A stretch of 52,421 nt of DNA from a virus. Taxonomy: Duplodnaviria > Caudoviricetes. Positions 10,312 to 42,920 of this stretch are shown piece after piece (position 1 is the stretch's first letter; each line of letters starts with the position of its first letter). The notes beneath the pieces were generated by a model. That model ran no database searches and was not told the DNA's origin. It saw nothing but the letters and a program-made list of their open reading frames with translations. Location: IMG/VR virus record IMGVR_UViG_3300025392_000466, positions 1-52,421 of that record. One strand, written 5' to 3'. The position numbers and the translations under genes were made by a program.

Positions 10312-11346
10312 ATGAGTATATTAGACAAAATCAAGAAGAATAGTAGCATTAAAGATTCTGCTATTCTATCCAAATCAAAGTTCTTCACACAGAAGGACAT
10401 GATTCCAACCGCAGTACCGGCAATCAACATTGCTTTATCTGGAAAGTTGGATGGCGGTTTAACACCAGGTCTTACAATGTGGGCAGGTCCATCAAAACAC
10501 TTTAAGACTGCTTTTTCACTTTTGATGGCCAAATCTTACATGGACAAATACGAAGATGCTGCACTTCTTTTTTATGATTCTGAGTTTGGTACTCCTCAAT
10601 CTTATTTTGATTCCTTTGGTATTGATACTGACCGTGTTCTACATACTCCTCTTACTGATATAGAACAATTGAAGTTTGACGTAATGAAGCAATTGACTGA
10701 ATTGGAACGTGGTGAACACCTCATCATTGTTATTGATTCTATCGGCAACTTGGCATCCAAGAAAGAAGTTGAAGATGCATTATCTGAGAAGTCTGTGGCA
10801 GATATGTCAAGAGCAAAACAAGTCAAGAGTTTGTTCCGTATGGTGACACCACACTTGTCTTTGAAAGACATTCCAATGATTGTTGTGAATCATACTTACA
10901 TGGAAATTGGTATGTTCCCTAAAGCAATCGTTGGTGGTGGCACAGGTTCATATTACTCTGCCGATAACATCTTTATTCTTGGTCGCCAGCAAGAAAAAGA
11001 AGGTACAGAAATAACTGGTTATAACTTTATTATCAATGTAGAAAAGTCCCGTTATGTCAAAGAAAAATCTAAAATCCCTGTTTCAGTATCTTTTGACGGT
11101 GGTATTAGCAAGTGGAGCGGCCTATTGGATATCGCTCTTGAATCCAAACATGTGGTAAAACCAAGTAATGGTTGGTACAGTAAAGTAAATTCTGAAACTG
11201 GTGAAGTTGAAGAAAAGAAATACCGCGAGAAAGATACCAATACATCGGAGTTCTGGACTTCAATCTTGGCAGACCAAACATTCCAAGAATATGTGTCAAG
11301 CAAATATGGTGTTGCTACTGGTAACATCATGCAGGAAGAAGAATGA
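10312..11346 (+). CDS. uvsX: RecA-like recombinase UvsX
   Basis: AGPSKHFKT Walker A, YDSEFG, IDSIGNLASKKE. Confidence 0.97.
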   Translation: MSILDKIKKNSSIKDSAILSKSKFFTQKDMIPTAVPAINIALSGKLDGGLTPGLTMWAGPSKHFKTAFSLLMAKSYMDKYEDAALLFYDSEFGTPQSYFDSFGIDTDRVLHTPLTDIEQLKFDVMKQLTELERGEHLIIVIDSIGNLASKKEVEDALSEKSVADMSRAKQVKSLFRMVTPHLSLKDIPMIVVNHTYMEIGMFPKAIVGGGTGSYYSADNIFILGRQQEKEGTEITGYNFIINVEKSRYVKEKSKIPVSVSFDGGISKWSGLLDIALESKHVVKPSNGWYSKVNSETGEVEEKKYREKDTNTSEFWTSILADQTFQEYVSSKYGVATGNIMQEEE

Positions 11347-21675: not shown

Positions 21676-22854
21676 ATGAGAACTTTCAAATCTCTACTCA
21701 AAGAGGAAGCTGACGAATCCAAACTGAAGCACATCACGCATGTGGAAGACCATGCCATACATGGTGGTGCTGAGGGGTTCAATCACGCTGTTGGAGTACT
21801 AAATCAGGTAAGAAAACACATCAAAGCGGGTAAAAATGATCCTACTTTGACGATGAAACATGATGGTTCGCCAAGTATTGTTTACGGACACCATCCAGAA
21901 ACTGGCAAATTCTTTGTTGCTTCCAAATCTGCATTTAACGTAAATCCAAAAGTTAATTACACAGAAAAAGACATTGAAGCAAATCACGGTCATGCACCTG
22001 GTCTTGTTGCTAAACTAAAAGACGCATTACACCACTTACCTAAAGTTGCACCAAAATCTGGTGTATATCAAGGCGACATGATGTTTGGCCATGGTGATAA
22101 GACCGAACATGATGGTAGAGTTCACTTCAAACCAAACACAATTAACTATTCTGCACCTAAAGATTCTGAAGAAGGCAAGAAAATCCGTAAGGCAAAAGTT
22201 GGTGTATATACCCACACACAATACCACGGCAAAACCTTGGCCGACATGAAGGCAGACTTTCATCCAGATTTATCGGGTTTCAAACAACATGCTGACGTGT
22301 ATCATAGAGAACCGGGACACGACACTTCTAAAGTTATGATGTCTAAACATGATGATGACCAATTTCATCACCACCTAGCATCAGCACAAGCATTACACGA
22401 CCTACACGGCAAACAGATGTATTCTGCTACAGAACCACACCGTAATGCTGGTGGTCCAATTGAAGCACACATTAATCAAACAGTTAGAACTGGTGAAAAA
22501 CCAAGTGTTCATGGACTAAGAAAATCTATTGAAGCTAAGTATGACAAAGACATTGCTAAGGTCAAAACACCAGCAGCAATTACTAGAAAAGAAGCAGAAA
22601 AGAAAGCTCATATTGAACATATAGATAACAATACACAACATTATGAGAATTTCTTCAAAATGCACAACCATTTACAAAAAGCCAAAGATTCATTGGTTCA
22701 TGTATTGGCTAGACACACAGGAGGTTTAGAACATACAGTTGGTGATGCATCAGTTAAACCAGAAGGTTTTGTTGCAACACACAAAGGCAAAGTTTCTAAA
22801 CTGAACGATAGACAAGAATTCAATAGACTTAACTTTTTAGCAAGACCACGATGA
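21676..22854 (+). CDS. His-rich protein with KxDG ligase/nucleotidyltransferase-like motif (DUF6267-like), probable internal head protein
   Basis: MRTFKSLLKEE N-terminus; TMKHDGSPS, QGDMMF, PEGFV motifs; 40 His in 392 aa. Confidence 0.65.
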   Translation: MRTFKSLLKEEADESKLKHITHVEDHAIHGGAEGFNHAVGVLNQVRKHIKAGKNDPTLTMKHDGSPSIVYGHHPETGKFFVASKSAFNVNPKVNYTEKDIEANHGHAPGLVAKLKDALHHLPKVAPKSGVYQGDMMFGHGDKTEHDGRVHFKPNTINYSAPKDSEEGKKIRKAKVGVYTHTQYHGKTLADMKADFHPDLSGFKQHADVYHREPGHDTSKVMMSKHDDDQFHHHLASAQALHDLHGKQMYSATEPHRNAGGPIEAHINQTVRTGEKPSVHGLRKSIEAKYDKDIAKVKTPAAITRKEAEKKAHIEHIDNNTQHYENFFKMHNHLQKAKDSLVHVLARHTGGLEHTVGDASVKPEGFVATHKGKVSKLNDRQEFNRLNFLARPR

Positions 22855-24653
22855 AATCATTTAGACAGTTAGTAGAAGAAAAAACCAAGTCAATTGTTAT
22901 GGCAATTGGCCGCATGAATCCGCCTACAAAAGGACATGAAGAAAATGTCAAAGGTATTCAAGACTTGGCTAAAAGAAATCATGCTGACCACATCATTGTG
23001 GCTTCACATGCACATGATGCTAAAAAGAATCCACTTGATGTCAAAACAAAAATGAAGCATATCAAACGTGCTTTTCCAGATGCAAATATTGTACCTGCAA
23101 CAAAAGAAGCACCCGGTCTATTGCATCATGCAGCAGAAATGCACAAAAAAGGTTACAACCATGCTATCGTTGCATCAGGTGAAGGTGCAGAAGCAAACTA
23201 TCACTTATTGAAGAAATACAATGGTGTAGAAGGCCGTCATGGTTACTTTAAGTTTGACCACATTGAACAACAATCAACTGGCGAACGTAAACCTGGTATT
23301 TCTGGCACTGACATGCGTAATCATGTTAAAAATGGTAATTTCAATGAATTCAAAAAGAATCTACCAACAAATATTCAAAAACATCCACAACATGCAACAG
23401 AATTGTTCCACGATGTAACTAAAGGTATGGGTCTACATGAATCTACCAATCGTGGCCACGGCAAAGCAATCTTTGTTACTGGTGGTCCTGGTTCTGGCAA
23501 AGATGTTGTTATCCGTGAGTGTATCGCAGAACAGAACATTGTAGAATTAAACTTCCAACAAGTTATGGACATTATGAACGACAAGCACAGGTTGGCTATG
23601 CGTTCTATGAATCCTAAGATGGAAGCAATTCGTCAACGTGGTCCACTTATCATTAATGGACCTGCCGATGATTATGAAAAGATTTCACATATCAAAGAAG
23701 AATTGGAAGAACTGGGTTATAAGACCATGATGGTTTTTGTTGATACAACAGACCAAGTTAGCCAAGAAAGAAATACATTATTGTCTAGAATGATGGTGGA
23801 ATCTATTCGCCATGCTCGTTGGGCAGAAGCACAAAAGAATATTACAAATTTCTCCGAATTGTTTGAAAGTTTCTCTCGTTTTGATAATACTGGAGACTTG
23901 GAAGAAAAAGTTAGTGACATTGCTGACTTGTTTGTGGAAACAACCAAATTCTTGGACAATGGTTCAATACATTATTCCAGTGCAAATAAATTCTTGCAAA
24001 TCTATGAAGGCTCAAAGTCTATTCAAAGAACCAATTTGAAAGATAAAGGACTAAATGTATTGAAAGACAACAACAGTCCAGTTATGCAATTTGCCGCAAA
24101 ACTAGGTCGTAGAGATGATGTTAGAGATGGTGATATCAAAATGAATACTGGTTATACACCTAGAATTGGTGGTGGTAGCACATATGCAGAAGATAAAAAT
24201 CCAGTAATGGTTAAGGCTCCAGAACCAAAAGTTTCAAATTTCAATAGAGATGCCGATTCCAATAGAAAAAGAAAAGTTGGTGACAAGTCTCTAACTGCTG
24301 CTAGAATAGGAAGTGTTGATGGTGTTGGTTCATCATATGACACAAGAGGTGGTTCTACTGGTGCCGCTAATGCAGGTCTTGGAGATAATACATACCATGA
24401 GGAAAGAGAATTTAGCAACGATGATGTTGCAAATTTTGCTGGTCAAACAAGAGGCGTAAGCCCAAATCCACTAGCAGAAAAGAATAAGAAATTGAAAAAG
24501 TTTAAGGAATCAATCTTTGATTTTGGTCAAGGAGATTCTGGTGTAGGTGGCACTCTTGGTGGTGCTGGTAATAAGGAAGACTTTGTTAAGCCATCAGAAA
24601 AGTTTGGCCAATCAGGTATAACAATTAAAAAGAAAAAAACAGGAGTAAAATAA
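22851..24653 (+). CDS. cytidylyltransferase-like domain plus P-loop kinase domain plus low-complexity tail
   Basis: MKSFRQLVEE; GRMNPPTKGH (HIGH-like) and ISGTDMR; GGPGSGKD Walker A. Confidence 0.8.
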   Translation: MKSFRQLVEEKTKSIVMAIGRMNPPTKGHEENVKGIQDLAKRNHADHIIVASHAHDAKKNPLDVKTKMKHIKRAFPDANIVPATKEAPGLLHHAAEMHKKGYNHAIVASGEGAEANYHLLKKYNGVEGRHGYFKFDHIEQQSTGERKPGISGTDMRNHVKNGNFNEFKKNLPTNIQKHPQHATELFHDVTKGMGLHESTNRGHGKAIFVTGGPGSGKDVVIRECIAEQNIVELNFQQVMDIMNDKHRLAMRSMNPKMEAIRQRGPLIINGPADDYEKISHIKEELEELGYKTMMVFVDTTDQVSQERNTLLSRMMVESIRHARWAEAQKNITNFSELFESFSRFDNTGDLEEKVSDIADLFVETTKFLDNGSIHYSSANKFLQIYEGSKSIQRTNLKDKGLNVLKDNNSPVMQFAAKLGRRDDVRDGDIKMNTGYTPRIGGGSTYAEDKNPVMVKAPEPKVSNFNRDADSNRKRKVGDKSLTAARIGSVDGVGSSYDTRGGSTGAANAGLGDNTYHEEREFSNDDVANFAGQTRGVSPNPLAEKNKKLKKFKESIFDFGQGDSGVGGTLGGAGNKEDFVKPSEKFGQSGITIKKKKTGVK

Positions 24654-26755: not shown

Positions 26756-27388
26756 ATGTCAGCATGGTCAAATACAGACGCATTTAGTAACCAAGGCAAA
26801 CCAAAAATGGATGCTTTGAGAGTTACAAGAGAAAACGTACAACTTACTGTTACTACCGGTAATACCGCAGGTAATAATGTTATTACAGTTTCTTATTACG
26901 ATGGTGGACTAAACAACGTAGCCAACATTGGTATTACAGCAGGTCAATACGTATATTTCTGGGCTAATGGCTTCGGTGATAACAAAGGTGGCCAAGCAGG
27001 TAATGGTATTCCTGGTTTCATTGCTTCAAATACAACTGTTGCTTCCACAAGCGGCAACACAATTACTTTGGGCACTGCACTATTTAATACCGTTAGCGCA
27101 GGTTTTGGTGTTGAGTTTGACAAAGCCATTGTTTATAACACAAACAAAACAATGCAAAAAACATACGGTGCAGATACAGTTTTGGTTACAGCAACTCGTT
27201 TGGCTAATAACACAGTTAATATGGGTAACCAAGTTCCAGGTTGGACTCACATCCAAAAGAAAGTTATGAATGGCGACACTGCTAATGCTCGTTACATCCA
27301 CGAAACATTGGTTGCTTTGGCTAATCCAACTGCCGCAAACACAAACTCTGGCAACACAAGCTGGGGTCAAGCGTTTACCGGTCTATAA
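26756..27388 (+). CDS. putative virion structural protein (beta-rich)
   Basis: Strong SD AAGGAG; G/N/T-rich; GW...ETLVA C-terminal pattern; near-consensus late promoter AATAAATA at 26719. Confidence 0.6.
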   Translation: MSAWSNTDAFSNQGKPKMDALRVTRENVQLTVTTGNTAGNNVITVSYYDGGLNNVANIGITAGQYVYFWANGFGDNKGGQAGNGIPGFIASNTTVASTSGNTITLGTALFNTVSAGFGVEFDKAIVYNTNKTMQKTYGADTVLVTATRLANNTVNMGNQVPGWTHIQKKVMNGDTANARYIHETLVALANPTAANTNSGNTSWGQAFTGL

Positions 27389-27394
27389 TAAGGA

Positions 27395-27410
27395 TGGGAC
27401 TTCGGTCCCA
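27395..27410 (+). promoter_or_regulatory. C(UUCG)G hairpin between SD and start codon
   Basis: TGGGAC-TTCG-GTCCCA between AAGGA (27390-27394) and ATG 27416; no U-tract. Confidence 0.7.
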
Positions 27411-27415
27411 ACATT

Positions 27416-27802
27416 ATGTTTGATGATTTGAATGAAGATAATTTTGTGATGTATGCGGTTAAGTGTTACACATCCACTAGCTGTCTTATGTCTGAATTTG
27501 AAGGAGACTTGAAAAGAACAAAGTATCTTAAAAGGCTCCTTCGTAGATATAAGATAACTAAGAATCTTAAAGAGAGATTGATACTTAATCACATCATATT
27601 ACTTAATAATGTATTTGGTGTTGAAGCAACCGCAAGAATATTGTTTTTTAGAATTGACGAGAAGGACTATGATGTACTCAAGACCTTCTTACTGTATCTA
27701 AATATATTACCAGAAGTGGTTGTCGGCATTAGAGGCAAGAATATAAGAACGGACATAATTCCAGTGGACATGAAAGTAGCAGACATACTGAGGAAAATAT
27801 GA
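27416..27802 (+). CDS. conserved T4-like hypothetical protein
   Basis: EFEGDLKR.KYLKRL...ERLILNHIILLNNVFG pattern. Confidence 0.75.
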   Translation: MFDDLNEDNFVMYAVKCYTSTSCLMSEFEGDLKRTKYLKRLLRRYKITKNLKERLILNHIILLNNVFGVEATARILFFRIDEKDYDVLKTFLLYLNILPEVVVGIRGKNIRTDIIPVDMKVADILRKI

Positions 27803-28941
27803 AAAACTTCAAAGAACTAAGAGAAAAAGTTAAAAAACCAACAGGTGGACTCAAAGATGCTTGCTGGACCGGTTACACTGCCGTTGGTATGAAAATGAAG
27901 GGTGGTCGTAAAGTTCCTAATTGTGTGCCTGAAGAAGTTACCGAAGCCAAAGACCATGAATATTCTGACCCACACATGGCAGTCAACCAACTAAGAACAA
28001 TCATGCACAATGCAGAAGAATTGTGTGAGATGCTTGGTGGCAACACCGACTTGCCTGAATGGGTTGAGTCCAAAATTACATTGGCAGAAGACTACATTAT
28101 GACAGTCGCCAATTATATGCGTAGTGAACTCAAAGAAGAAGTTGTGGCGGAAGGCTCGGGAAAGAATGTAGTCAAGTCAGTCAAGGTAGGAAACTTTAGA
28201 CACGATTTGGTCAATACTGGAATGGGTTGGCAGGTTCGTATCCATAACGGTGATAAACTTTATGATACTGGGTTGAGCAAGAACTCAGAAGAAAAAGGTT
28301 TAGCCGCATTGGATAATTCAGTGGCATACACTAAAAAGCAACTAAACATTAAAGAGCAAGGTGTGGCGGAAGGCGCTCCAGAACTATTGAAGAAAGAAAT
28401 GCCAACACATCGTCATGCTGAAAAATTATTAGCACAAAATGGTGTAAGTAAAGACGATCCAGATTATTACCACCATCTTAATAACACAATAAAACATCTT
28501 CGTCAGTTTGGTAACATTGATTTGATTAACAAAGGTGACGAGCAAGGTGTGGCGGAAGAAGTTGAATCAATGTTTGATATTGTTGAAGAACTTGTGATGG
28601 AGATTGCAGAAACTCACAACATTGATCCTGAACAAATTTGGGAAGACCTTGCTGACGTATCAGATGAAGAATTGTATGAGTCTGCTGCATGGAGACGCAA
28701 AGAAGGTAAAGACCCTAAAGGTGGTCTGAATCGTAAAGGTGTTGCATCTTACCGTAGAGAAAATCCAGGTTCAAAGTTGAAGATGGCAGTTACAACAAAG
28801 CCATCGAAACTAAAACCAGGTTCTAAGGCAGCTAATCGCCGTAAATCTTTCTGTGCAAGAATGGGTGGCATGAAAGGTCCTATGAAGAAGGACGGCAAGC
28901 CAACTCGCAAAGCATTGGCACTAAGAAAGTGGAACTGTTAA
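27799..28941 (+). CDS. modular polyprotein, probable internal head protein, with GVAEG-bounded cassettes and basic C-terminal domain (DUF6321-like)
   Basis: MKNFKELRE; CWTGY..VPNCVP module; LPEWVESKITLA module; GGLN..G...RRKSFCARM..RKWNC terminus. Confidence 0.75.
   Translation: MKNFKELREKVKKPTGGLKDACWTGYTAVGMKMKGGRKVPNCVPEEVTEAKDHEYSDPHMAVNQLRTIMHNAEELCEMLGGNTDLPEWVESKITLAEDYIMTVANYMRSELKEEVVAEGSGKNVVKSVKVGNFRHDLVNTGMGWQVRIHNGDKLYDTGLSKNSEEKGLAALDNSVAYTKKQLNIKEQGVAEGAPELLKKEMPTHRHAEKLLAQNGVSKDDPDYYHHLNNTIKHLRQFGNIDLINKGDEQGVAEEVESMFDIVEELVMEIAETHNIDPEQIWEDLADVSDEELYESAAWRRKEGKDPKGGLNRKGVASYRRENPGSKLKMAVTTKPSKLKPGSKAANRRKSFCARMGGMKGPMKKDGKPTRKALALRKWNC
28135..28564 (+). repeat. TGTGGCGGAAG x3 in frame, flanked by GAAGAAGTTG x2
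   Basis: Core at 28143, 28362, 28548 (219 and 186 bp apart); 10-bp direct repeat at 28135-28144 and 28555-28564. Confidence 0.9.
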
Positions 28942-29156
28942 TGAAACGTTTTAAAGATTTCGTCAAAGAAGATGGTATGGGTGCTGGTGCTGTATCATCA
29001 GGTCCAACAAATACTACCGGCGGTGGCCAAGTTGCAGGTATGGGTCAACCTCCTGGTAGTAAATCGGGTGAACCTGGTGTTTACTTGAAGAAAAAGAAAA
29101 AAGCACATAACCCCGTAATGATGGGAATGGGTTCAAGAAAACCACCAAAGATTTAA
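28941..29156 (+). CDS. small G/K-rich probable internal head protein
   Basis: ATG in TAATG overlap; MKRFKDFVKE N-terminus. Confidence 0.7.
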   Translation: MKRFKDFVKEDGMGAGAVSSGPTNTTGGGQVAGMGQPPGSKSGEPGVYLKKKKKAHNPVMMGMGSRKPPKI

Positions 29157-29165
29157 GGATATGAA

Positions 29166-29750
29166 ATGTTTGATATGTTCTCTCCTGAGTATGTTATAAA
29201 CTATGCATTAGGATTACTACCAACATGGGTACCATGGGCAATTGCTGCAAGCGGCATTGCCCTTTTTTTATTGTCACATATTTTTAACAAATTGATACCT
29301 TTGTTATATAGATTTGTCATTACAATTTTATGCTTCATATTGGTTGGTCTTGGTTTTTGGTTGCAAGGCCGACAAGACATTCTAATTGAAGGTAAACATG
29401 AAGTTGAAAAGATAGTTACGGAACAGAAAGTCATAACTAAGGTTGTTGTACAGAAGTTCATTGAAAAACAAAAAGAAATTGAGGTAGTACATGATAAAAT
29501 TGCAGCAGAAATCAATACTAAAGATGACCATATGTGTGATGTTCCTGAGTCTTTTGTACGGGTGCACGACAGCGCCGCTCAAAATACCGTTCCCGGACCT
29601 GCCAACGGAATTGATGGAACCTCCTCCGGAATTGCACTCTCTCAAGTCGAACACACAATCACCGACAACTACGAACTCTACCATAAAGTCGCAGAGCAAT
29701 TGAAGTCATTGCAAGAATGGGTAACTAAACAGAAGGAGTTGAATCCATGA
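29166..29750 (+). CDS. Rz-like inner-membrane spanin
   Basis: N-terminal TMs, coiled coil, C.VP..FVRVHDSAA and DNY..H...EQL..LQEW patterns; embedded lipoprotein ORF. Confidence 0.7.
   Translation: MFDMFSPEYVINYALGLLPTWVPWAIAASGIALFLLSHIFNKLIPLLYRFVITILCFILVGLGFWLQGRQDILIEGKHEVEKIVTEQKVITKVVVQKFIEKQKEIEVVHDKIAAEINTKDDHMCDVPESFVRVHDSAAQNTVPGPANGIDGTSSGIALSQVEHTITDNYELYHKVAEQLKSLQEWVTKQKELNP
29491..29703 (+). CDS. Rz1-like outer-membrane lipoprotein spanin embedded in +1 frame
   Basis: SD GAGG; lipobox LYGC; Pro-rich mature peptide. Confidence 0.65.
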   Translation: MIKLQQKSILKMTICVMFLSLLYGCTTAPLKIPFPDLPTELMEPPPELHSLKSNTQSPTTTNSTIKSQSN

Positions 29751-40763: not shown

Positions 40764-42920
40764 ATGTTACTTACTCAATCCAAGTCACTTTTGGCCAAAC
40801 TCATGGCCACCGAAAATCTTCACATTGAACAACGCAACGTTTCTACTGCATCCTTTGATGTTCAGAATCGTGTTTTGACTATTCCTGTTCTAAACAAAGA
40901 CATTACAAACGACCAATACGACCTTTTCATTGGTCATGAAGTCGGCCACGCACTTTTTACTCCATTGGATGGTCTTAAAAAGGCATTTGAAGAAAAAATG
41001 TCTATGTCCGTGCTGAATGTTGTTGAAGATTCTCGCATCGAACGCAAAATCAAGTCAAAATATCCTGGTTTGCGCCAGTCCTTTATTCGTGCATACAAGG
41101 ATTTGCTCGAAAAAGACTTCTTTGGTACTAAAGGTGAAGACCTGAACAAACTTAATTTCATTGACCGCATCAATTTGTATTGCAAAGGTGGTGTTGACCT
41201 TGGTATTTTGTTCACCGATGAAGAAAAACTCATCTTGAATGAAGTGGAAAGCACTGTAACCTATGATGATGTCATCCGTGTCGCTAAAAAAATCTGCGAT
41301 AACATGACGGAAGAAGAAAAAGAACAGTCTAAATCCTCAAATCTTGACGATTATGAGTATGACGAAGACGGAAATGAAACAGAACCCGGTGATTCAAATG
41401 GTGATTCTGCTGAAAATACTGGTTCCGGCAAAAAAACTGAGACTGAAAAGTCAGAAGGACAATTGGAACAGTCTAATGGCAATTCGAAACCTGAAAAACA
41501 AGAATCTAATGATGATGGCCAGATAAAAAGTGAGACTAAAGGTGCTGCCGGTCAATCCGGTGCTAACACCAAGACTCCTATTTCACATACCGATGAAGCG
41601 TTCCGCAGGAATGAACACAAATTGTTCTCGAATGATGGTCGTAAATATGCATACGGCAATGTTCCCAAGTTGAATATTGACGAAATTATTGTTGACCACA
41701 AACTGCTGTGGAATCGTTATCGTTTGGATGTGAAAACCAAAGTTGACTACGCCAAACATGTCAACGGGGGTTATGAATTGCCTGATGGTCGTAATGGTGC
41801 CGATAAAAATGCCTATCAAAAGTTGCGTGAAGAATCCAAGAAAGTTGTTGGTTACTTGGTAAAAGAATTTGAACTGCGTAAAAATGCGGATCAAATGAAA
41901 CGTGCAGCCGTTGCCAAAACTGGTGAATTGAATATGTCTAAAATCTATTCTTATGGTTTTAGTGAAGATATCTTCAAAAAGATTTCAGTTGTACCTAACG
42001 GCAAGTCTCACGGCTTGGTTATGTTTATTGACTGGTCTGGCTCAATGCACAATCACATTGATAACACTATCCGTCAATTGTTGAATCTGGTTATGTTCTG
42101 TAAGAAAGTTAACATTCCCTATGATGTTTATGCTTTCACGCAAGCATATGATAAAAATGCACGTGTTCATCCTAAGAAAGATGACATGGTATTGGGTGAA
42201 TTCTCTTTGATGAATCTGTTGTCTAGTCGTATGTCAGCAAGCGAATATTCATATGCCGCTTCCGCTTTGTTGGCTTTTCATAATCGTTACTGCGTCAAAC
42301 CTGATTGGTTCGGTCTTTCTGGTACTCCATTGAATGAGGCTGTTGTTGCCGCCATGGAAATTGTTCCCAAATTCCGTAAAGACAATCGTTTGCAAATTGT
42401 GAATACTGTATTCTTGACTGATGGTGATGGCCAAAAATCATTGTATGCATATGATTCTACTGGTCGTTATACAAGCCGACAAAGTAATACAACCTTTGTT
42501 ATTCGTGACCCTGTAACTAAACATGAAGAATATGTTGAAGATGGTTACAGTCGTGAATTGACTGCCGCATATATCAAACTATTGAAGGCACGTACCAATG
42601 CACATGTGGTTGGTTTCTATGTTCTTTCTGGTCGTGATTTTGGTTATCAAATGCACCACTTTTCTGATGCTGAAACCACTGCTGAACAGGATGAATTCAA
42701 GAAGAAATTCCGCAGTAATAAGTACCAAGTCGTAACATCAGAAGGTTATGATGAATACTACCTACTATATGCAGAGGGCCTGGAAACAGATGATGATACA
42801 GAATTTGAAGTGAAAGAAAATGCAACAACCCGTGGTTTTGTATCTGCTTTCTCCAAATACAATAACAACCGTAAAGCCAACCGAGTGGTATTGAACCGCT
42901 TTATTGGCCTGATTGCTTAA
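40764..42920 (+). CDS. HExxH metallopeptidase-like plus VWA (CobT-like) protein
   Basis: GHEVGHAL; acidic linker; DWSGS, GTPL, LTDG MIDAS motifs. Confidence 0.85.
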   Translation: MLLTQSKSLLAKLMATENLHIEQRNVSTASFDVQNRVLTIPVLNKDITNDQYDLFIGHEVGHALFTPLDGLKKAFEEKMSMSVLNVVEDSRIERKIKSKYPGLRQSFIRAYKDLLEKDFFGTKGEDLNKLNFIDRINLYCKGGVDLGILFTDEEKLILNEVESTVTYDDVIRVAKKICDNMTEEEKEQSKSSNLDDYEYDEDGNETEPGDSNGDSAENTGSGKKTETEKSEGQLEQSNGNSKPEKQESNDDGQIKSETKGAAGQSGANTKTPISHTDEAFRRNEHKLFSNDGRKYAYGNVPKLNIDEIIVDHKLLWNRYRLDVKTKVDYAKHVNGGYELPDGRNGADKNAYQKLREESKKVVGYLVKEFELRKNADQMKRAAVAKTGELNMSKIYSYGFSEDIFKKISVVPNGKSHGLVMFIDWSGSMHNHIDNTIRQLLNLVMFCKKVNIPYDVYAFTQAYDKNARVHPKKDDMVLGEFSLMNLLSSRMSASEYSYAASALLAFHNRYCVKPDWFGLSGTPLNEAVVAAMEIVPKFRKDNRLQIVNTVFLTDGDGQKSLYAYDSTGRYTSRQSNTTFVIRDPVTKHEEYVEDGYSRELTAAYIKLLKARTNAHVVGFYVLSGRDFGYQMHHFSDAETTAEQDEFKKKFRSNKYQVVTSEGYDEYYLLYAEGLETDDDTEFEVKENATTRGFVSAFSKYNNNRKANRVVLNRFIGLIA

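Follow-up and report, generated by a model that had tools for sequence, protein, structure and literature searches.

Several systems are known in which a short conserved element borders exchangeable parts of proteins or gene arrays. In the tail-fibre adhesins of T-even phages (gp37/gp38), short conserved glycine-rich motifs alternate with variable segments, whereas in CdiA a conserved peptide motif, VENN, borders a variable module, and homology at or before this motif may enable the replacement of the resident module by a stored one (PMC7662968). Polyvalent proteins combine 2-15 unrelated domains in one polypeptide and are highly mosaic, some of them being packaged and processed by peptidases; recombinational variability has been suggested for these proteins (Iyer et al. 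2017, PMC5512222). In integrons, exchangeable cassettes are arrayed between copies of a repeated site. In phages, the reshuffling of multi-domain proteins has mostly been described after the fact, as 'mosaicism'. Here we analyze a modular gene of a freshwater T4-like phage, in a 52,421-bp viral contig (IMG/VR record IMGVR_UViG_3300025392_000466; this whole stretch of DNA is referred to below as the window) in which the joints between the modules are marked by a countable sequence signal. This signal is a GC-rich, nucleotide-conserved, in-frame linker that probably serves as a short-homology crossover point for the gain, loss and swap of protein cassettes.

The modular gene and its parts, in order along the window, are listed below.

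27799..28941, plus strand: modular gene, 380 amino acids (aa), comprising a leader, a CW module, a helical hub, two cassettes and a C-terminal DUF6321 domain; taken from the list of open reading frames (ORFs)
27799..27828, plus strand: leader MKNFKELREK, which fits the T4 capsid targeting sequence (CTS) pattern and has a putative targeting role
27829..27939, plus strand: CW-x-GY...VPNCVPEEV module, with partial PHROG matches over residues 5-55
27940..28134, plus strand: helical hub domain (…LPEWVESKITLAEDY…ANYMRSELK), conserved and adjoining the cassette site on its left, recognized from relatives
28135..28155, plus strand: junction copy 1, GAAGAAGTTGTGGCGGAAGGC (EEVVAEG), with its left half off consensus, from the repeat search
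28156..28353, plus strand: cassette 1, 66 aa, four strands and one helix (AlphaFold2 pLDDT 93.8, pTM 0.81)
28354..28374, plus strand: junction copy 2, GAGCAAGGTGTGGCGGAAGGC (EQGVAEG), the consensus form, from the repeat search
28375..28539, plus strand: cassette 2, 55 aa, helical (AlphaFold2 pLDDT 77.5)
28540..28560, plus strand: junction copy 3, GAGCAAGGTGTGGCGGAAGAA (EQGVAEE), overlapping the second GAAGAAGTTG (28555-28564), from the repeat search
28705..28932, plus strand: DUF6321 domain, a basic C-terminal module, from the Pfam match

An original prediction, made from the letters of this DNA, had described the gene as an in-frame cassette array bounded by a DNA repeat, and the repeat itself is borne out in full. 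The sequence TGTGGCGGAAG occurs at 28143, 28362 and 28548, and the window contains no further match even when 1 mismatch is tolerated; 0.45 copies are expected in a shuffled window, and 1 of 100 shuffles reached 3. Copies 2 and 3 have GAGCAAGGTGTGGCGGAAG in common, the spacings are 219 and 186 bp, and all three copies are read in the one frame of 27799..28941, as EEVVAEG, EQGVAEG and EQGVAEE, while VAE[GE] is absent elsewhere from the six-frame translation of the window. The flanking GAAGAAGTTG is indeed present at 28135 and 28555, the window containing 4 copies where 0.2 would be expected. The GTG-GCG codons of the repeat, which had been thought uncommon, are so: GTG makes up 15.4% of the Val codons and GCG 5.9% of the Ala codons in 44 long window ORFs, the 3 GCG among the 27 Ala codons of the modular gene all lie within the repeat copies, and the chance of V-A being written as GTG-GCG is 0.009 per site. 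The left junction, KEEVV[AT]EG, also precedes another cassette in the relative P0025; judged from their sequences, copy 1 (EEVVAEG) and the VVTEG, DVTEG and VVEEG of relatives look like decayed or hybrid copies.

A search for the repeat across other genomes, as the original prediction had advised, revealed that it is widespread rather than a local oddity. At least 120 viral contigs contain the 17-mer CAAGGTGTGGCGGAAGG (Q-GVAEG), a locus often having 2-4 copies, and these loci span 30-66% GC. In 161 of the 162 viral matches the longest open frame reads its CAA as a codon, and in 124 of the 162 another near-consensus copy lies within 3 kb. As controls, the reversed motif was found in 1 viral contig, and the synonym written with the commonest codons in 33 contigs, mostly in other proteins or other frames; synonym contigs with several junctions nearby amount to 3 loci of one context. 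Among prokaryotes, represented by one genome per species from ~186,000 species, there are at least 120 matches of CAAGGTGTGGCGGAAGG as well, most of them from genomes rich in GC (median 65%), and 3 of the matches listed have a second nearby copy; given that these matches are single and fall in mixed frames (72/36/12 among those listed), they look like chance. Five giant viral contigs carry the motif 3-7 times, on one strand and in one to three clusters, with no match to the reversed control.

In the 167 loci that were collected, 138 ORFs contain two or more junctions. Between the junctions lie 284 distinct segments (median 68 aa, quartiles 55-109) that fall into ~206 families, 164 of which are singletons, and the number of segments per array varies from 0 to at least 7. 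Nearly all of these families are without a Pfam match; of six large arrays searched with Pfam, four gave DUF6321, one gave GNAT and one a weak DUF5872 match. All of the 125 host frames that were examined stay open across the junction. A survey of the open-access literature, with subscription journals and supplements outside the search, found no phage-context paper on the GVAEG motif and none on DUF6321.

The two cassettes of the window gene behave as separate units. An exhaustive search without a profile, in which residues 110-259 were compared with 1.84 billion cluster representatives, retrieved 128 representatives of 59-1208 aa; the best stretch covers both modules in 13 of these, and the remaining matches cover one module, at any place in the protein. 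The same modules are present in other genes, a point that the original prediction had proposed to test, each being found separately in many other proteins. Cassette 1 was identified in 23 viral loci and cassette 2 in 24, where the latter has 14 distinct left and ~11 distinct right neighbors across the 24 rows. Both are also found in short predicted proteins of 59-79 aa (cassette 1 in proteins of 76-79 aa, P0221 and P0227). Codon differences between copies of cassette 1 are 1694 synonymous and 514 non-synonymous, which indicates purifying selection. Each cassette is a small, autonomously folding domain that moves independently, and so the array of independent, mobile modules that had been postulated is supported. 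The modules could not be linked to a described function: a fold search of the Protein Data Bank (PDB) gave no match with E<=0.001 for either (the best match of module 1 is the MMOD inhibitory subunit, TM 0.62, E 0.06), a BFVD fold search gave nothing with E<=0.001, its matches being small uncharacterised phage proteins only (best E 0.0037), NCBIfam had no match for the 4 proteins scanned, and the protein atlas contained only small hypothetical viral clusters, without a function for the cassettes. One run, X23, an RNA library, has cassette 1 in other flanks, with DNA carry-over possible. Among the short proteins, P0133, P0176, P0178, P0189 and P0223 have a second leader, M(T)NKSIRDYINL(I/V)E, immediately before the junction or module.

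The allele states of the cassette site were surveyed in the 30 closest loci, fetched via the conserved hub domain to the left of the site. An empty form, ELKEE-[HY]NP[DE]x-MFD, is present in 18 of them; L171 has both cassettes, L172 (P0002) has cassette 1 only, and L173, L176 and L177 have other sequence, whereas L175 is fused to another tail, 3 loci end just past the site and 3 are without the anchor. Empty, one-cassette and other-cassette alleles, which the original prediction proposed to seek by alignment, were accordingly all found. The difference between L172 and the window is exactly 28354-28539, that is, one junction copy plus cassette 2 (the 186-bp unit), and comparison of the alleles shows that they differ by whole junction-bounded units. 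The clean empty allele ELKEEVESMF that had been predicted was not seen; the empty forms carry [HY]NP[DE]x between ELKEE and MFD, which implies that sequence was replaced and not simply inserted, and NEEVEQLFDI is read in more distant relatives (P0050). In relatives P0018 and P0024, the CW module itself sits at the cassette site, after ELKEE.

The cassette block of the window is 99.6-100% identical to those of L171 and L172, against 82-92% for the DNA around it; the block has hence moved recently between diverged genomes, and comparison shows that the cassettes move. Over 26800-29400, the identity to L171 alternates between 77-89% and 97-100% in blocks of a few hundred bases, so that the whole neighborhood and not the cassette site alone is a fine-grained recombination mosaic.

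Contigs from four sequencing runs were aligned to the region. In run X1, a freshwater metagenome, the filled form (depth 45) and the empty form (depth 20.7) are present together, the latter with 13 other letters in place of 427. Among the 38 loose contig ends, 21 are listed, and 13 of these lie at junction edges (28135-28140, 28348-28354, 28372-28374 and 28558-28559), from where they enter other sequence; two enter neighbors known from other proteins, namely FVVK... (beside cassette 2 in P0008) and EWSQKYKS... (after cassette 2 in L135). The search for excised circles came down to a single contig joint, 28558 -> 28327 in run X17 ('goes back 232'), which does not fit a 186-bp circle. This joint leads from the end of junction copy 3 to a point 27 nt before copy 2, the letters between being unknown, and probably reflects another module order.

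Considering that the junction is both a DNA and a peptide motif, the level at which it is conserved was assessed on an unbiased codon set, consisting of GVAEG sites in loci that were found via the modules and not via the junction. Of 69 non-redundant sites, 54 have the exact 15-mer GGTGTGGCGGAAGGC, 67 use GTG for Val (background 24%) and 67 use GCG for Ala (background 12%). At the non-ascertained sites of motif-ascertained loci, 25 of 60 are exact, with GTG in 50 and GCG in 49. The third codon positions of the junction are conserved at 0.91-0.95, like the first and second, and outside A(G)CAAGGTGTGGCGGAAGG conservation drops to background. Together with the synonym control, codon use and third positions indicate that the border is conserved as DNA and not merely as a peptide, in agreement with the prediction. 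The altered junction codons, 45 synonymous and 63 non-synonymous, compare with a neutral expectation, by our arithmetic, of ~31 and ~77 for 108 changed codons, so that the junction peptide is weakly protected. In the module 1 set, third-position diversity is 0.022 in the junction and 0.293 in the module. The original prediction had been expected to fail if homologs varied freely at synonymous positions, if the modules were fixed or if there was no empty allele; synonymous variation is restricted, the modules move and empty alleles exist.

It could be argued that conservation is at the protein level only, with GVAEG being a linker or a protease site whose codons derive from common descent, and with the DNA uninvolved in the shuffling. 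The final Glu of the peptide suits prohead proteases, the synonymous excess just described is modest and old junction copies decay, all of which agree with such a view. Nevertheless, it would have to accommodate GTG-GCG at nearly all unbiased sites against the low background, as well as non-synonymous variants at more than half of the changed codons (63 of 108). It is also at odds with locus L146, where a copy of module 2 that is 58% identical at the protein level adjoins a junction that is identical in DNA and perfect. Furthermore, common descent of modules cannot yield a junction common to ~206 unrelated families, and the allele breakpoints coincide with the junction. We consider protein-level conservation alone to be an unlikely explanation. 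Our reading of the pattern is that intact junctions recombine and spread to new contexts, and decay once recombination stops.

The mechanism that we propose is the following. The cassettes are joined by a nucleotide-conserved junction of ~17-19 nt, A(G)CAAGGTGTGGCGGAAGG, used in one frame only, (E/K)-Q-G-V-A-E-G, that would act as a short-homology crossover or template-switch point. Any two junction copies could recombine, either within a gene or between co-infecting related phages, with the frame kept, and cassettes would be added, deleted or swapped as the outcome. The machinery would probably be the general UvsX-type recombination of the phage, and the window encodes a candidate for it:

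10312..11346, plus strand: UvsX-like recombinase (phrog_97, E 6.8e-92)

Next to the arrays, the most frequent neighbors are a protein of 1621 aa whose C-terminus is lytic (63 loci), a DNA polymerase (55 loci), a Dps-like protein (53 loci), a small regulator (52 loci) and a cytidyltransferase (31 loci), and their recurrence points to conserved synteny within one phage group. Because the genomes are syntenic, a single crossover or template switch between junctions would give a viable in-frame recombinant, and the GC content of the junction, 73% against 41% for the modular gene, would favor annealing. Consensus-matching junctions would keep making new contexts while old ones decay, which would explain the dominance of the consensus over more than 200 unrelated module families; the motif would then persist through its own recombining.

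Several observations speak against this mechanism or limit its reach. In the module 2 set, third-position diversity of the junction (0.243) equals that of the module (0.265), so the junction is not kept unchanged at a given place. The empty allele does not amount to a clean deletion from repeat to repeat, and the high-identity patch shared with L171 extends over ~28000-28600, reaching ~100 nt to the left of the left junction, so that its ends are not exactly at the junctions. For homologous recombination of the UvsX type, a homology of 12-19 nt is short. The counts are not independent events, since the loci are related to one another and were in part found through the motif, and the evidence for exchange is comparative throughout and all metagenomic.

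Alternatively, the junction could be recognized by a dedicated site-specific system, with an integrase, a nuclease or a homing-type enzyme moving the cassettes, as the original prediction had implied by calling the array 'integron-like'. A motif that is sharply bounded and nucleotide-conserved resembles a recognition site, and its few copies (3-7 per genome), clustered on one strand, would suit such an enzyme. This part of the prediction was not upheld, however: there is no integrase or nuclease family among the ten commonest neighbor families of the 167 loci, and none was found in the window among the 36 ORFs scanned against PHROGs, which do not comprise every ORF. Neither do the junctions show inverted-repeat symmetry, the only inverted repeat in 27700-29000 being a 10-nt pair at 28513/28565, and the restriction of the motif to one frame (161 of 162) is accounted for by selection on the product alone. 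A dedicated enzyme thus seems improbable to us, although one encoded at a distance from the arrays might still act on the junction, and short-homology crossover at the junction remains the reading that we prefer.

A translational role, in which rare codons or a Shine-Dalgarno-like G-rich stretch would pause the ribosome at domain borders for folding, appears quite improbable. It would agree with the low use of GTG (15%) and GCG (6%) here and with the position of the motif exactly between autonomous domains; yet other rare codons (GCC, GTC) would do equally well, while a single 15-mer accounts for 54 of the 69 unbiased sites, and the breakpoints at the motif are left unexplained, although pausing could still be an added benefit. 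Finally, although the data are all metagenomic and the repeat is shared by many genomes of one community, chimeric contigs joined at a shared short repeat are an extremely unlikely source of these arrays, considering that the window arrangement recurs in L124/L171 and another arrangement in L127, L129, L130 and L134, with different sample numbers, that the protein clusters have several members and contigs, that the 17-21-nt repeat is below the 31-letter words on which the Logan contigs that cross it are built, and that all 125 of the examined host frames are open across it.

Beyond recombination at the DNA level, the junction peptide might have a function of its own. T4 internal proteins carry a ~10-aa N-terminal CTS and undergo one cleavage after it while gp21 degrades the scaffold, and the T4 CTS packages any protein fused to it (PMC8442874); the prohead proteases of T4, phiKZ, 201phi2-1 and SPN3US cut after Glu (PMC5694885). 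The modular protein could be a polyprotein with a T4-CTS-like leader, in which the Glu-ending junctions would be cut by a gp21-type prohead protease and the cassettes freed in the head; from the sequence signals described below we regard this as plausible but tentative. The strict leader pattern MKx#xx#xx[ED] is carried by 41 of the 120 family hits, compared with 9 of the 1668 control ORFs, and the N-termini of relatives include MKTLKDFITE, MKTFTQYIKE and MKSFKQYLDE. Junction and leader both end in x-x-E, whereas the T4 prohead protease has the narrower consensus Leu/Ile-x-Glu. Peptidase_S77 was identified in 3 of the 5 giant contigs with arrays and in all 5 of the other large contigs that are related (8/10).

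Other data weigh against this protease layer. A looser leader pattern is found in 16 of 186 array ORFs against 99 of 1668 and is not clearly enriched. The start codons of the array ORFs are uncertain. The leader pattern also heads a cytidyltransferase-like ORF (22851-24653, 600 aa, phrog_3041), which begins MKSFRQLVEE, and one 99%-complete array-bearing contig is without a Peptidase_S77 match. The neighbors of the modular gene are lysis and replication genes and not head genes; neither head genes nor a gp21-type protease were seen among the 36 scanned ORFs of the window, which is estimated to cover 31% of its genome. The combined possibility, namely that one adaptor plays two roles, as a universal in-frame crossover site in DNA and as a prohead-protease cut site that frees cargo in the head, is doubtful on present evidence.

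Marine cyanomyoviruses encode a similar protein in which several modules are shared, as judged by eye, without the junction DNA. In Synechococcus phage S-E7 (L372), the 530-aa protein at 547-2136, labelled 'structural protein, T4 GC0119' by its depositors, adjoins the small terminase gene and contains KEEVVAEK, which is like junction copy 1; its label is the sole hint that proteins of this kind may be present in virions, and no paper on Syn9 gp114 was found in the open-access literature. Two array proteins, L005:3346-5934:- (863 aa) and L037:1854-4022:- (723 aa), have DUF6321 in mid-protein and, by eye, a C-terminal HExxH string (HELVHH) where Pfam matched nothing; this string might possibly belong to a zinc peptidase that could process the array. 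In the window, the ORF at 40764-42920 (718 aa) has a full-length match to phrog_459, 'peptidase' (E 2e-196), and no Pfam or NCBIfam match. As a candidate array partner, phrog_459 was found in 0 of the 5 giant array-bearing contigs, but the control matched nowhere either, which makes the result uninformative.

The modular gene belongs to a large phage protein family, with 7048 relatives at E<=0.001 among 8000 candidates scored and matches in 483 phage records; relatives of the hub domain are encoded in 415 viral stretches. Its C-terminal DUF6321 domain (PF19846; residues 303-378, E 2.5e-21, 76.5 bits against a gathering cut-off of 28.5) is common to cyanophage and pelagiphage proteins. The window (38% GC) encodes a T4-like replication set, which includes a family-B DNA polymerase, the UvsX-like recombinase, a DnaB-like helicase, a primase and ribonucleotide reductase, as well as an endolysin, and 22 runs labelled freshwater metagenome contain the window stretch. 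Upstream of the modular gene, a stem of 6 perfect base pairs closed by a TTCG loop (TGGGACTTCGGTCCCA) at 27395-27410, terminator-like on both strands, falls between the ORF at 26756-27388 and the DUF7207 gene. The T4-type late promoter TATAAATA occurs 6 times in the window against 3.7 expected, with none near the modular gene, and a scan of the window for sigma-70 promoters gave a count below chance. Immediately downstream lies one further ORF of interest:

28941..29156, plus strand: ORF of 71 aa headed by a leader of the same kind (MKRFKDFVKE), from the ORF list and the leader pattern

Its start lies one base past the stop codon of the modular gene. In L175, a sequence that resembles this ORF, as judged by eye without alignment, is fused straight to the hub, which suggests that the same unit may be either a separate gene or a fused module.

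The junction makes it possible to cut thousands of unannotated phage polyproteins into real units and to follow the gain and loss of these units in natural populations. It also allows one to test whether a coding sequence can be retained on account of the way it recombines. Should the junction be a prohead-protease site as well, it would mark a large hidden set of candidate capsid-delivered proteins and suggest a natural design for packaging exchangeable cargo; a dual-purpose adaptor of this kind would amount to a natural combinatorial system that assembles and exchanges injected effectors.

Comparison with the described systems places these arrays as follows. They differ from integron cassette arrays in every defining feature tested: no integrase was found among the 36 scanned ORFs of the window or the ten commonest neighbor families, the attC hairpin is missing, and each unit is an in-frame piece of a protein and not a promoterless gene. 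With the T4 internal proteins and the gp21-processed head proteins, the modular protein may have in common a leader of the CTS pattern and potential cut sites that end in Glu; in the T4 internal proteins, however, there is one cut and one cargo, whereas here several modules would come from one precursor. The polyvalent proteins are alike in architecture, but that work (PMC5512222) describes no conserved junction and does not contain the word 'linker', and the polyvalent repertoire (MPTase, ParB-like, ART and others) was not found here, the window gene yielding only DUF6321 in Pfam. In CdiA, with its orphan cdiA-CT/cdiI modules, there is a single border, the exchange is confined to the C-terminal tip, an immunity gene travels along and the upstream homology is longer, whereas the present arrays have the motif on both borders, lie inside the protein and lack immunity partners. 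The motifs of the T-even adhesins form the essential structural core of one domain, in which the segments are loops of fixed number and order. Here, in contrast, the segments are whole unrelated domains (~206 families) that vary in number and order and fold alone, and one nucleotide motif is common to many genes and diverged phages; breakpoints and allele differences fall at this motif, as is expected of motif-mediated exchange. The closest working likeness would thus be the motif exchange of the T-even adhesins and the VENN tip swapping of CdiA, while the products resemble polyvalent proteins. What sets the present system apart from all three is a single motif, in a single frame, on both sides of unrelated domains, with a variable number of modules, in many genes of diverged phages.

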